Assembly (NCBI RefSeq): GCF_054482595.1
Contig: NZ_JBTHVH010000006.1
Source of the DNA: a plasmid
DNA length: 46,161 bases
Strand: one strand, 5' to 3'
Position 1 is the stretch's first letter, and each line of letters begins with the position of its first letter. Made by a program: the position numbers. Below are positions 31,201 to 40,200 of the stretch, in pieces.

Positions 31201-34200
31201 GTCGCCCCCTGCGATAGCCAATCTCCAGAGCAATTTTATCCAGTTCCTCACGAGAAGCTGAGGGCAGGTAGAGTGTATTACGTTGGGGCTTGCGTCTCGT
31301 TGCGGTTTTTTTTCGGGTAGCAGTCATTTTTCTTCCGTTTCATTTTGTGGGTTAAGCTTCTCTCTGTGATGTAGTGGATGAAAGCCATACTTCTTTGCTG
31401 CGGATTATCCATGAGTAGAATTTCAGCAAAATCGTGTGGAATTGATTTCCTTAAAAGATTTGCCTGAGCTGTTGTATGTGATTGTCTGTACAAAAGCTCC
31501 GCCATCACATCTTCTGGTACAGGTAAAGGCTCACCGCCAAATGAGATAAAGCGTTGTACGTAAGGGATAGCAGTTATTGTAGTGGAATGAACCTCTTCAA
31601 AATCTGCCTGGATAAAAAGATAACCGGGAAAAAGCGGCAAACGTCTTTCTCGATATGAAATTATCTTATCCGGGCGACGATACCTTTCAGTCTCCATAGG
31701 ACAGAAGTAAGAGAAGTTCAGGCGTTCGAGATGAGCAAAAACTGCTGCAAATCTCGTAGTGGTGAATTGCAAAACATACCATTCCATAGTTTTTCCTTTC
31801 AGGCGCTCTCTCGACTCGGATGACCCCGAATCAGAGAAAAAAAACAAAAGGACAAATTTACATCTCATAAAAACTTTATCAGCTACATGTGCTGCGTTCA
31901 ACCACACAAGCAGATCTTTAGATCGCATTTACGACACATTTCATTTTGTTTGTGCTTGTATTTTATTTATATCTAGATACATATGCTATTTGATAACAAA
32001 AAAGCAGATCGATTGATCACCATGCGCTTATTTTATAGTCAAGTTAACTAAATTTTTTACCGCTAGTTACTTTTTACAAAAACTCTGCTAACAAGATAAA
32101 TAAATCGATCTTAATCAATAAGTTACCGGAGAGTATGAATTATCCTAAACGAATTCCGATTTTCACTTTCTGTTCGCTTTGAATCATCGACTGTTTTATT
32201 TGCGAGAAATTTCTCATCTGGAGTTGCTGTTTCTTAATCATCTCCGCGCTGTTCAGCACCAGCTCTTTACTGGATGAAGAGATTCTGTCTATGCCCTTAA
32301 CCCCCAGGTTCTCTAGCTGCCACTCATTCCTGTGTGCAGTCTTCCAGCCATGCTGTACACCGTTCTTATCAAGTGCAGGGATTTTCACCTCCTTTTGTCC
32401 TAACTTCTTCAGCTTAACAAGATCACCTTTCTTAACGTTCTCGCGAGTGGTTAACTCACCAAAATCAGCCCCCCAATATGTTTTCTCCACGCCCTTGTTC
32501 AGTGTCTTAAGCTTTATGAAATGCTGCTTTGGTTTGGTTTTATCGTTCTGATAATGGTCGTAGCCAACATCAACAACCTCATAAACGCCCTTCTGTCGTT
32601 TTGGCGCTGTTTTGTGCGCATCTTTAATAGACTGGTTAAGTCCATGCTGCTGCTTATGAGTGGCTTTAACGTCATAGCCCTTCATCTTCAGCTCTTCACA
32701 AAAACCTGTACGAATTTCCCGTAAATCTTTTTTCCTGATATCAGCTCGTTTACCGTCATTATCACGAATACGAAAAACGACATGCACGTGTGGATGTTCT
32801 TTTTTGTCGTTATGATAGCCAAGCACAAAACGATGATTTGGGTACTTCTTGTTCATCGTTTTCCTGACAGACTCAAGCAGATCTTCAGGTTTTACCTTTG
32901 CTGATACAGGCGGTGAAAACACAATATTTTGGGTTACTTTTTTATTTTCCTTACCTTTATCATCGAAAACATTTTGAGGGTCATTAGCACGATCTATCAT
33001 GTGCTCTTTAGCCTCCTGAATCTCATCACCTTTCCATACCTGACCGCTTTCACTCATCACTGGCAGCTCTGACTCCCGGCTCATATAGTCAATACTGTTT
33101 CGAACTCCCTGCCGGGTAATCGCACCTCCTGAGATTTTGACAACAACCTCCTTACTGGCACCCTTGCGGTTGATACGTTCCTGAACGTTGCGTTGATAGT
33201 TTTTACCACCATTTTTAACTTTATGGGCGAAAGCAGACTTGCGGCCAGCTTCAGAGGACTTACGCTTAACCCTGAATTCCTTGTCAACATAAACGCCCAT
33301 GATTACACCTCAACCTTGTTAGAAACAGTTCGCCCTTTGCATAACATAATGTAGTTTTCAAACTCACTTTTGAGACTCATTATCTCTGAACTCAACCGCT
33401 CAGCGTCCTGATAGAACCCATCTTTATCAAGTACTCTGGCATTATCATTAACGATAATATAATGAAAGTTTCGCCCTATTTTATCTATTGCATTACGGCA
33501 ACGATTCATCACCAGAAGTTCCTGATCGAAAAAATCAAGTTCATTTTCAAGTGTCGTCTGGATTCGATAACGACATTCTCTGGATAAATTCCAGCCATGA
33601 CGATGAGCCGCTTTCTCTATTAAAGTTCTTTGTTTCCCTGTCAAATACATTGTGGTTTTGATAAAATCATCATTGTCTTTTGACACATTAACATCTTCAT
33701 TTTTAACCTTGCTTTTCAGTAAAGCATTGGCAAGCAGCTTCATTCCTTTTGCCACGGTTAAACCCGGTTCATCTGGATAAAGTGTTTTAAGACAATCAAG
33801 TAGATCATCATGTTGGCTTTCTTCAATCCTGAATTGAACTTTTTTCATAAAACTCTCCAACAAGAACCGACTGTAGGTCACCGGGCAAACGTTGCGGAAT
33901 GGCGTCAGAGACGTCATTTTGCGGCGTTTGCCCTATCCTGCATCGCAGTGAACTACCTCCACACATAAATTGTGCTTCAGCGTCCATCGAAATGCAAAAA
34001 ATGAAAGGCTATCGTGGCTGTGATCTGGTGCGTCTGCGACCGGAGACAACGGATTCGCGGCTAACTTGGGCGGAAATAAATTCGCTACGCGAATGGCCTG
34101 GCAGGGGGCGCGAGCGCTGTTTTACGGAATATACAAAAAAAGCACCTCCCGTAAACGGGAGGGCTTCGGCGATTCAGGAACGGGAATTTTATTCTGCCTC

Positions 34201-37200: not shown

Positions 37201-40200
37201 AGGGATTTCCGAAAGAGGCGCGAACTGTAGTTACATAATGCGCTGTCGTAACATCGCGCCGGAGACGTTCGCCAGGACTGGCGAACCAACAAGCCCGAAT
37301 GAGAGCGATAACCCCCCTCACCCCTGCCAGGCCAATTTCTGACTATCAGACGATGTTTAGCCTGTCGCAGTTAGCGCGTGAGCTTGCGAACGGTACGCCG
37401 GGTCAGTGTGAAACACTGGCGCGGGGCGCTGTATCTGCGCGTTATGAGATGCGTTAGCAGCGAATTACGGGGCGGGTTGCTGAAACCGATTGATGCCTGA
37501 CAGCAAAAAATGAATCCGGGCGCCAGCTGCTGCACGAAAATTGCCAGCAAAAAACACTTGGCCATCCTCGCCGGTCGTGAAATTTTGCTGGCGTAAGAAA
37601 TAATCCCCCCGGTATGAGGGGCTTGTCTGAAAGGTTAGTGGTTGGGCTTACTGAGAGTGAACTGTAACCCGGCTACTGCTGCAAGCTGTGCAAGTGTTGT
37701 GATGGTCGGGTTTCCGTTCGGGGATAATGCGCGGTAGATACTCTGACGAGCAAGGCCGGATTTTTTGGCCGCCTCTGTTATACCCCCTGATTAGGGATCA
37801 GGTTAAAAACGAGCTGTATGACGTTCTAAGCGCATTTTACCCGCTCCGTTGAACCATGACCGGGTTAAAGCGGTTAAAACGCCTCTGAGGGCTTTTGAGA
37901 GCATTTAAGAATTGGATCGGAAAAGGATCCCGTCTGGATCTTTTAGAGAGATTACACCGCTCGCCGCAGCCGAACGACAGGGCGAAGCCCGCGAGTGAGC
38001 GAGGAAGCGGAATTTCCACGGGGTTTCAATAGAGCACTTACGCGCTAAGGTTAATATTTGCTCAATTTTTGGTGGTGCAGTGCTCAGGGAGGCCAGACGG
38101 ATCTATCCTCTGGATTTATGCTGAGTTATCCACAGACGCTGTGCATTAAAAGCCTTATATTTTCTTCTTGATCTTAAAAACTTAAAAACTTAGCTCGCTT
38201 CAATTACCTGAAAATTATGGAAAAAAATTGCTAAAGGTGAGAGGATTTTTCACGTAAGGTGAGAGGATTTTTCACGTAAGGTGAGAAGATTTTTAAGTTA
38301 AGGTAGTTAGATTTTTCACTAAAGATGAGAGGATTTTTCACGTAAGGTGAGAAGATTTTTAACGGTTTCCACAGTTTGACTGAACATCAAGTGAAACATG
38401 CGGTTGTTGCTATCTTTAGATATGAAGATCCTCAGATCTTCATATCTAAAGGTGAGAGGTTTTTTAATTAAAGGTTGTATTGTTGTCTTGAATTACAACC
38501 TTTGTGGGGTTATGATTTGCCTACATAGGAAAGGTTATATGAGGCTTATCGTGAAGACAGTAACGGGATTAACGAAAGTTAGACATAGAAATGAAGTTGG
38601 GGTAACTCTTGCATCCCTTTCCCTTTCAGCAAAAAGAGTGCTTTTTCTGGCTCTTTGCCAGATTGATACAAAGGAAATGTTAGATGATGATATTTTGGAG
38701 GTTGATGCTGACTTTTTTTCAAAAGCTACTTCTTTAGATAAATATGCCTCTTATGCAGCTCTGAAAGAGGGAGCTAAAGTTCTTTCTTCAACTACGTTAG
38801 TTTTAAACAGAGATGATTTAAAAAATTTGGCTGATGAACTTGGGATACTATCATCTAAGAATAAAATACCTGATCGCTTGGATTTAAACTTAACAGAATT
38901 CTGTGCCTATTACGATCATCTTGCAACTGTACGGATAAAATTCACAAATACAGCTAAGCGATATTTTTCTAAGTTGATTGGTTCTGAAAATAGATATACC
39001 ACTCAGGTATTGAAATCAGTTGTGTTGTTGAACAGTGTAAACTCAACAAACCTTTATCAAGTCATTAGGAAATATTACAGTCAGAATAGTTCAAAAAAAT
39101 CTTTTGATATATCCGTGGATGATTTAAAAGAGGAAATGGGACTTTATACTATTGAGGAAGGGGAGAAGAAATATAAGTATCCTAAATACTCATTTTTTGT
39201 TCGTGATGTTATCAATAAAAGCATTAATGAGATAATTGAGAAAACGGAAATAAATCAGTTATCTTTCTCTGTTGTTGGGAAAAAAGGGAGAATGGCTCAC
39301 ATGCTTAGATTTGAGTTTAGTATAAATGAAAAATCCTCATCCTTTTCGGAAGATGATATGGCATTTTTAGAGGAGTTTGACAAAGTCGTTCCACCAAAAA
39401 AGAATAAGTGAGGCAAAACATGGCTAAAATATATGAGTTTCCGCAGGGAGCCGAACGAAGTAAGCTGAAAAAAGAAATCATCCGGGAACGTAAAAAACGA
39501 TTGCGAGAAACGAACGGTAACCCGGTTATCCGGCACGCTAAATGGTTCTGGTTTTATCTACGTCTTGCTACGGCTGGCGCACTGCATTTAGTCTCTGTTA
39601 TTTCTCTGGCAGTCCTGGGGGCTTTCAGTAAAGCTATTTTCTGGATTGGTGGAATGCTCTGTGTTGTTACATGGTTCCACCTTGAGCGCCAGTTCTGGAC
39701 GCCGCAAAATTTCACGATTCCAGTAATCGTAACGCTGTGGGGATTGAGTTTGTTTGCCACTCCCCTGATGGAGCTGCTTAACAAAAAAATGCCGTGGTAT
39801 CGTCTTCTGGTTCCTGATGCAAAGCACACTAGCACTGAGGCAACCAATGATGATCAGCCGTGAAGCAACAATGTTATCCAGTCGGCTTGCAGTGCTTCTT
39901 TCAGCCTTTTATCATCGGTTAATCATAGCGCACGAGGCGAGTTCTTTTCACTGCGATGCAGGATAGGGCAAACGCCGCAAAATGACGTCTCTGACGCCAT
40001 TCCGCAACGTTTGCCCGGTGACCTACAGTCGGTTCTTGTTGGAGAGAGTTATGAAATATCAGGTTAAAGAGTTTATTAACGAAAAATATTCTAAGGCTGT
40101 TAATATTTTAAAGGATAACCTTAAAGAACACTACCATATTTTTTATGGTTTGAGATTAAGTGAGATTCTTTTTCCTGCCAGCGAATACGGCTCTGAAATG

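Follow-up and report, generated by a model that had tools for sequence, protein, structure and literature searches.

In R6K (IncX2), two oriTs, oriT-alpha and oriT-beta, lie inside 'long inverted repeats' on either side of the alpha-gamma-beta replication region, and nicking and mobilisation have been reported for each oriT copy, as described by the papers that cite the original work (Avila, Nunez and de la Cruz 1996, via PMC11915502 and PMC5587640). Two oriTs are considered a hallmark of IncX plasmids (PMC3402527, PMC3332091), the paired oriTs of IncX plasmids generally are also described in bioRxiv 2024.01.30.577996, and a map of IncX3 already carries the label 'two oriT', after Avila 1996 (PMC11915502). 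It is established for R6K and the IncX plasmids that the two oriTs are inverted and that either strand can be transferred with the replicon leading. At MOBP transfer origins, the nick consensus is (C/T)ATCCTG(C/T), with a 5'-proximal inverted repeat (PMC3772185).

The stretch of DNA analysed here (the window, 46,161 nucleotides) is an IncX3 plasmid carrying blaNDM-5, complete at 46,161 bp, and many public records typed as IncX3, MOBP and MPF_T have the identical sequence. Sequence comparison within the window showed that positions 33853-33952 are the exact reverse complement of 39947-40046. The match noticed earlier, of 33853-33950 with 39949-40046, is exact and runs 2 nt further inward, giving a 100-nt inverted repeat, and near-identity extends outward as far as the start codon on either side (98% over 110 nt). 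The chance expectation for such a repeat pair in 46 kb is about 7e-52. The features of the region are as follows, where the arrow marks the predicted nic.

32140-33300, minus strand: taxC/ddp2, MobP1-family relaxase (annotation; NCBIfam MobP1: 441.9 bits, cutoff 200)
33303-33848, minus strand: taxA/ddp1, relaxosome accessory protein (annotation; NCBIfam DDP1: 235.5 bits, cutoff 150)
33853-33952, plus strand: probable oriT arm on the taxA/taxC side (oriT-alpha type), 100-nt exact repeat arm; predicted nicked strand, plus
33883-33933, plus strand: hairpin of the taxA-side arm (33883-33906/33910-33933), 24-bp imperfect, 3-nt loop
33934-33941, plus strand: MOBP nick motif TATCCTG↓C of the taxA-side arm; predicted nic between 33940 and 33941, 3' side facing into the segment
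34189-36474, minus strand: seven small genes, transcribed toward the taxA-side arm
36530-37045, minus strand: J-domain gene, transcribed toward the taxA-side arm
38231-38475, plus strand: 22-bp iterons of a gamma-type origin, six plus one more
38398-39411, plus strand: pir, replication initiator, transcribed toward the ddp3-side arm
39420-39863, plus strand: bis, transcribed toward the ddp3-side arm
39947-40046, minus strand: probable oriT arm on the ddp3/taxD side (oriT-beta type), exact reverse complement of the other arm; predicted nicked strand, minus
39958-39965, minus strand: MOBP nick motif TATCCTG↓C of the ddp3-side arm; predicted nic between 39959 and 39958, facing into the segment
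39966-40016, minus strand: hairpin of the ddp3-side arm (39966-39989/39993-40016), 24-bp imperfect, 3-nt loop
40051-40404, plus strand: ddp3/taxD, 117 aa, fed by the second arm (NCBIfam DDP3: 170.8 bits, cutoff 140)

From outside to inside, each arm consists of the ribosome-binding site and leader of an accessory gene, a conserved box CAACAAGAACCGACTGTAGGTCACC, the 24-bp hairpin, TATCCTG↓C and about 12 nt more. The hairpin is an imperfect palindrome, GGGCAAACG...CGTTTGCCC, with 24-nt arms and a 3-nt loop. A palindrome in each arm had been recognised before; its spelling, 'ccgggcaaacg...cgtttgcccgg', was slightly off because the CCGG extension is present on one side only. In both arms, TATCCTGC stands directly 3' of the hairpin, which fits the MOBP consensus and layout, and the nick motif is kept in all IncX subgroups examined. 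YATCCTGY alone is not statistically enriched: the window has 8 matches where 4.5 are expected, so that its specificity comes only from the context beside the hairpin. All five non-Watson-Crick positions of the taxA-side hairpin are G.T wobbles on the plus strand, and the hairpin folds at -21.0 kcal/mol on the strand with the nick motif versus -16.2 kcal/mol on the complement. This strand asymmetry, which we take as weak evidence, varies between subgroups: X3 and X4 show it clearly and X2 and X5 to a lesser degree, X6 gives a mixed picture, and Providencia lacks it.

The arms were compared with those of the IncX2 plasmid pNGX2-QnrS1, a proxy for R6K that carries R6K gamma-origin iterons and the pi protein and was identified through the R6K gamma-origin iteron sequence. 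Arm identity to this plasmid is 88.3% on the taxA side and 87.3% on the ddp3 side, and the 40 nt proximal to nic (GACGTCATTTTGCGGCGTTTGCCCTATCCTGCATCGCAGT) are identical to its taxA-side arm. As in R6K, two probable inverted oriT copies surround pir, bis, iterons and small genes, taxA-taxC being the outer neighbour of one arm and ddp3/taxD that of the other. The IncX3 plasmid and the IncX2 proxy differ in the hairpin (its distal half and loop), and in iterons and an initiator of different specificity. Moreover, the two IncX3 arms match at every one of 100 nt, and those of the IncX2 proxy differ at 6 of 102 positions.

The oriT of RP4 (IncP), the MOBP prototype, shares YATCCTG↓Y located 3' of an inverted repeat (consensus in PMC3772185). 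However, RP4 has a single oriT, its relaxase belongs to a MOBP subfamily different from the MobP1 relaxase of IncX3, and the similarity is limited to the nick core. The accessory and relaxase genes of RP4 lie on the hairpin side and enter the recipient last, and IncX3 has the same layout. The MOBP1 plasmids of the Campylobacter pTet type have a related relaxase (34% identity) and one TATCCTGC only, which lies upstream of the accessory gene in the same polarity. As an out-group they show neither a repeat pair nor a second inverted copy, so that the duplication is specific to IncX.

For the genes flanking the arms, the matches to DDP1, DDP3 and MobP1 each exceed the curated NCBIfam cutoff, and ddp3 corresponds to taxD (PMC3332091). 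The ribosome-binding site and 5' leader of taxA fall inside the repeat, and on both outer sides GGAGAG precedes the ATG by 5-6 nt, feeding taxA/ddp1 on the minus strand and the 117-aa ORF, ddp3, on the plus strand, just as the earlier note had read these outward genes. Comparison of the TaxA and Ddp3 proteins revealed no detectable homology (E = 0.53), which indicates that only the oriT and the leader were duplicated, to the exclusion of the genes. Scans for sigma-70 promoters and terminators in the surroundings of the two arms gave no convincing promoter for taxA or ddp3; a weak sigma-70 site (34155-34128, minus strand) and a terminator-like hairpin (34162-34145, minus strand) were seen. Between the arms, pir, bis, the iterons (six matches against 0.01 expected), the J-domain gene and seven small genes were found as previously listed.

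Collectively, the two perfect inverted repeats are very probably an R6K-type (IncX) oriT-alpha/oriT-beta pair around the replication module, each arm being a complete MOBP-type oriT. This reading is supported by the homology to the IncX2 arms, the MOBP motif 3' of the hairpin, the neighbouring genes (DDP1/TaxA with the MobP1 relaxase TaxC/Ddp2 beside one arm, DDP3/TaxD beside the other), and the literature. The earlier note had proposed two oriT copies by analogy with R6K, an interpretation that is right but not new, because it is in the literature for R6K, for IncX and for IncX3. One in-silico study of IncX3 counts against it: oriTfinder gave no oriT, and another region was proposed (PMC9492964). 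A search of the literature found no experiment on nicking or on mobilisation by a cloned arm for this IncX3 sequence.

From this arrangement we infer the nicking position, the function of both arms in IncX3 and the direction of transfer. TaxC, the MobP1 relaxase, would assemble with TaxA and possibly Ddp3 on one arm and nick after TATCCTG; it may then stay bound to the 5' end and pilot the strand 5' to 3' through a VirB-type T4SS. Since the arms are inverted, the two nicks would lie on opposite strands, both facing into the 6-kb segment, so that either strand could be sent, with the replication module first and the accessory and relaxase genes last. A strand begun at one arm would meet only the complement of the other and would not be terminated there, and the whole plasmid would therefore move. 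All segment genes face the nearer arm, so the incoming strand would be their template strand. As a minor new point, the inward-facing nick motifs predict the replicon as leading region on either strand: the seven small genes and the J-domain gene (34189-37045) for the taxA-side oriT, and pir and bis (38398-39863) for the ddp3-side oriT. Leading-region functions (anti-restriction, SSB, PsiB) were sought in the nine interior proteins with PHROGs and NCBIfam and none was found, the only matches of these screens being an HTH repressor-like match and the J-domain matches.

The arms might also, or instead, be parts of alpha- and beta-type replication origins, a reading that is compatible with the oriT role and that we consider less likely than not. 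In R6K, ori-alpha and ori-beta contain the long inverted repeats, at which the Ddp proteins distort the DNA, and the IncX3 plasmid has the same gene order, with pir, bis and gamma-type iterons in the middle. An inverted stretch that weakly resembles an iteron (76% match) lies at 39327-39351, within the 3' end of pir, but no iteron with three or fewer mismatches was found in the window outside 38234-38467. Furthermore, the oriT features fully account for the sequence of the arms.

The probable oriT pair is conserved beyond this plasmid. Plasmids of IncX1/X2, X4, X5 and X6 and one Providencia plasmid share the architecture, their arm pairs measuring 94-110 nt. The arms of one plasmid are 90-100% identical to each other (95-100% except for 90% in one recombinant hybrid, L004), and arm identity between IncX subgroups is 43-79%. 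The near-identity within a plasmid implies that the arms exchange sequence, and it is evidence, from sequence comparison, that the two arms of each plasmid evolve in concert, which is a minor new point. The orientation of the segment is the same in six IncX subgroups (X1-X6) and in the Providencia relative, the relaxases of which are 36-91% identical.

The earlier note suggested that homologous inversion of the 6-kb segment could yield two co-existing orientation isomers. In favour of this, RecA could use a perfect inverted repeat of 100 nt as a substrate, and the near-identity of the arms implies exchange between them. Synthetic inverted junctions and native junctions were matched to public assemblies. 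The inverted junction was found 2 times and the native one 1,431 times in PLSDB (about 1,433 records); the corresponding numbers were 0 and 536 for complete E. coli genomes, and 0 and 442 for IncX4. These counts describe consensus assemblies and are blind to low-frequency isomers inside a culture. In the two inverted PLSDB records, NZ_OK623716.1 and NZ_MH917281.1, the segment is cleanly inverted and the crossover falls within the repeat. However, one of them was built from PE100 reads as 6 contigs with manual joining, and such reads cannot resolve a 100-nt repeat, which makes that record unreliable; no paper was found in the literature for the inverted p14504-NDM. In other records the repeat yields obvious assembly artefacts. 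Independent public sequences show essentially a single orientation, and the constant orientation across the six subgroups and the Providencia relative also argues against isomers. A search of 33953-39946 for an invertase or recombinase gave none, the nearest recombinase-family gene being about 2.6 kb outside. Public assemblies therefore do not support the two isomers, and we regard their co-existence as highly improbable.

That the repeats are terminal inverted repeats of a mobile element (a transposon or an invertase switch) carrying the replication module is almost certainly wrong: the geometry of inverted repeats around a discrete 6-kb block fits, but gene annotation and profile screens revealed no transposase or invertase within the block, the outer edges are without a target-site duplication (...ATAAAA abutting CTCTCC versus GGAGAG abutting AGTTAT), the repeats hold the relaxase nick motif and the leaders of the flanking genes, and across IncX the arrangement belongs to the conserved backbone.

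The arms would exchange often enough to stay nearly identical within a plasmid, yet crossover (inverted) products are nearly never seen among about 2,400 finished assemblies or across six IncX subgroups. It could tentatively be proposed, at somewhat less than an even chance, that the orientation of the segment is actively maintained. In that case, either inversion is counter-selected or homogenisation proceeds by a conversion-only route. Counter-selection would mean that the two oriTs, or the direction of replication, are not equivalent in function, one possible reason being that the read-in to taxA-taxC and to ddp3 is swapped by inversion. Ter-like sites were considered as a cause of the fixed orientation and rejected, as they form a symmetric trap. 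The GC skew changes sign near the iterons and is uninformative on inversion.

To the established picture of paired IncX transfer origins, the present analysis adds a survey of public assemblies, in which the perfect repeat gives no stable orientation isomers, as well as evidence that the repeat causes assembly artefacts and evidence that the arms evolve in concert. The arms are unannotated in the RefSeq records, and the oriT has been missed by automated tools and by at least one in-silico study (PMC9492964). The 46-kb IncX3 plasmid type is epidemic and is a main global carrier of blaNDM carbapenemase genes, and its transfer origin should therefore be annotated correctly.

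The inverted repeat described in the earlier note was borne out: 33853-33950 is the exact reverse complement of 39949-40046, and another 2 nt match exactly on the inner side, giving arms of 100 nt (33853-33952 on the taxA side and 39947-40046 on the ddp3 side). When two mismatches per side are allowed, the repeat extends to both start codons (110 nt, 98%), and the chance expectation for such repeat pairs is ~7e-52. The earlier spelling of the palindrome was slightly inexact, while all else in that observation matches the following features.

33303-33848, minus strand: 181-aa gene (taxA), ATG just outside the taxA-side arm
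40051-40404, plus strand: 117-aa gene (ddp3), ATG just outside the ddp3-side arm
In each arm: imperfect palindrome with 24-nt arms and a 3-nt loop, then directly TATCCTGC
Outer end of each arm: GGAGAG, 5-6 nt ahead of the ATG
Between the arms, minus strand: seven small genes and the J-domain gene
38231-38475, between the arms: 22-bp iterons
Between the arms, plus strand: pir and bis

The 6.9-kb region is 100% identical to many 46,161-bp plasmid records from E. coli, Klebsiella, Citrobacter, Enterobacter, and Proteus, which are typed IncX3, MOBP, and MPF_T. Besides a VirB-type T4SS, the full record has blaNDM-5, ble, IS26, IS5, ISKox3, and IS3000, so the window is the epidemic IncX3 blaNDM-5 plasmid in its entirety.

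The products of taxA, the 117-aa ORF, and the relaxase gene score 235.5, 170.8, and 441.9 bits against the NCBIfam models DDP1, DDP3, and MobP1, respectively (cutoffs 150, 140, and 200). The ddp3 gene is the same as taxD, and ddp proteins are relaxosome proteins of R6K (PMC3332091). The IncX2 plasmid pNGX2-QnrS1, retrieved by the R6K gamma-origin iteron array and used as a proxy for R6K, codes for the pi protein and shares the gene order of the window. The window arm shows 88.3% and 87.3% identity to its two arms over ~100 nt, and the nic-proximal 40 nt are identical to those of its taxA-side arm. Furthermore, TATCCTGC matches the MOBP nick consensus (C/T)ATCCTG(C/T), which sits 3′ of an inverted repeat and leaves the relaxase bound to the 5′ end (PMC3772185). 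Taken by itself, the 8-mer has 8 matches in the window vs 4.5 expected and so is not rare; a long hairpin precedes only the two arm copies. Collectively, the relaxosome-type neighbours, the IncX2 homology, and the position of the motif support the proposal that the arms are probably two oriT copies. The hairpin of the IncX3 arm is at −21.0 kcal/mol on the nick-motif strand versus −16.2 on the complement, and its five non-Watson-Crick pairs are all G.T on the former. The nick-motif strand is also the stabler in IncX4, the difference is weaker in IncX2 and IncX5, and it is absent in a Providencia plasmid, which lends weak support to a single-strand role of the hairpin.

Sources on IncX transfer origins include Burmølle et al., and a large oriT survey regards 'x2 oriT_R6K' and MOBP1 relaxases as typical (bioRxiv 2024.01.30.577996). 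A 2025 study marked 'two origin-of-transfer (oriT)' on blaNDM-IncX3 plasmids after Avila et al. (PMC11915502). Given these statements, the main interpretation in the earlier note is correct but already known, and the paired-oriT reading is published for this plasmid group as well. In an in-silico study of IncX3, oriTfinder gave no oriT and a 354-bp region with TAACTA..TAGTTA was put forward instead (PMC9492964). This palindrome maps to 32045-32069, just downstream of taxC, and is probably not oriT, because a motif scan of the window found no nick motif in that stretch.

Plasmids from several relaxase identity tiers were also compared, namely IncX1/X2-type (L004 and L010), IncX4 (L006), IncX5 (L009), IncX6 (L008), and the Providencia plasmid (L007). 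All share the order ddp3 (a DUF2726 gene in IncX4 and IncX6)-bis-rep-iterons-J-domain gene-small genes-taxA-taxC, with an arm pair of 94-110 nt at both segment boundaries; in every arm, CTATCC(T/G)G comes after a hairpin. Between subgroups, arm identity is 43-79%, and the IncX4 and IncX6 hairpins are unrelated in sequence to that of IncX3, whereas the two arms of one plasmid are 95-100% identical, except in L004 (90%). The arms thus evolve in concert. The two arms of the IncX2 proxy differ at 6 of 102 positions, so the arms of IncX3, with their perfect identity, have been homogenised recently. In L004 (NZ_CP116979.1; arms 7777-7886 and 13348-13458), the ddp3-side arm matches that of IncX3 exactly, the taxA-side arm, TaxA, and TaxC are all of IncX2 (R6K) type, and the differences between the two arms fall in the distal half of the hairpin. 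L004 is therefore a recombinant and is evidence that IncX lineages have recombined at or near the arms. The duplication is limited to oriT and the translation-initiation leader; a protein comparison of TaxA with Ddp3 detected no relatedness. The distant MOBP1 plasmid pTet has a single TATCCTGC upstream of an accessory gene, with the same polarity but, unlike IncX plasmids, no repeat pair, in agreement with the duplicated oriT being an IncX innovation. In IncX4 (L006, 6058-6585) and IncX6 (L008, 5396-5779), ddp3 is missing and a DUF2726-domain gene is found on the outer side of the rep-side arm, adjoining it in IncX4 and one gene away in IncX6; the second oriT is thus not partnered by Ddp3 in all plasmids.

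The arms may, in addition to a transfer role, be part of alpha/beta-type replication origins as reported for R6K and IncX1 (PMC3332091), and the two functions would be compatible. An iteron scan of the window found none near either arm, the exception being the 3′ end of pir, where an inverted stretch weakly resembles an iteron. Transposon ends or an invertase switch are excluded, as there is no transposase, invertase, or target duplication.

If the arms act as paired transfer origins with the MOBP layout, nicking would occur after 33940 on the plus strand and after 39959 on the minus strand. The strand 3′ of the nick would enter the recipient first, so that from either origin the 6-kb replication segment would come first and the origin's own outward gene last. 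The relaxase operon usually enters the recipient last, and the predicted polarity fits this rule. Since the copies are inverted, a strand begun at one arm would encounter just the complement of the other, remain uncut there, and deliver the full-length plasmid; direct repeats, by contrast, would be resolved. All interior genes are oriented toward the nearer arm, a pattern found in all subgroups, and the entering strand would thus be their template strand: that of the small genes and the J-domain gene via the taxA-side origin, and that of pir and bis via the ddp3-side origin. When the interior proteins were screened, an HTH repressor-like protein and a J domain were the only hits.

Several other sites were observed in the window. 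A 98-nt direct repeat (82% identity; 35016-35113 and 37041-37138) lies upstream of a 112-aa gene and the J-domain gene; its minus strand carries TTGCAT-N17-TATAAT, and the spacer includes the palindrome ACCATCATATGATGGT. It looks like a duplicated promoter/operator with leader, which the 80-aa HTH protein encoded nearby (35114-35356) may control. A strong terminator-like hairpin (34145-34162, minus strand; CCTCCCGTTTACGGGAGG, then a T-run) separates the last small gene from the taxA-side arm, so transcription of the small-gene operon probably stops short of taxA. The 12-nt core of E. coli TerB, ATGTTGTAACTA, occurs in inverted orientation at 9394-9406 (plus) and 43349-43361 (minus), flanking the accessory/blaNDM-5 region. 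GTTGTAAYKA has 3 matches versus 0.24 expected; the third Ter-like site (24344-24353, minus) falls within the T4SS genes and is a poor match to TerB (13/23). The arrangement resembles the Tus/Ter fork trap of R6K and lies opposite the origin.

The earlier note also proposed two orientation isomers. Public records were searched for the junction expected after inversion, in which the arm joins the outer-left flank to the reverse-complemented inner-right flank. Inverted versus native counts were 2 and 1,431 for the IncX3-type junction in PLSDB, 0 and 536 in complete E. coli genomes (530 genomes), and 0 and 442 for the IncX4 junction in PLSDB. The two inverted records, NZ_OK623716.1 and NZ_MH917281.1, both show a clean inversion whose crossover lies within the repeat. 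The former, pNDMKP37, was hand-joined in Gap4 from 6 contigs of PE100 reads (PMC10209314), which are too short for a 100-nt exact repeat, so that its orientation is unreliable; a literature search for the latter found no paper from which its method could be traced. Extra copies of the taxA-side arm in pEC-393 (NZ_KX618697.1, 801-1030; a 128-nt tandem duplicate) and pNDM5_AS (NZ_KX674681.1, 801-1020; two copies with Ns between) are most likely scaffolding artefacts from the repeat. With ~2,400 finished assemblies and segment orientation conserved across six IncX subgroups, stable co-existing isomers are not supported, although consensus assemblies could miss rare inverted molecules within a culture. 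Homogenised arms combined with a near-total absence of inverted products stand out as a small point, for which promoter scans and the Ter-like sites gave no explanation. In practical terms, the IncX3 oriT is often missed or mis-assembled, and the residual interest lies in an orientation that is fixed although the perfect repeat evolves in concert.
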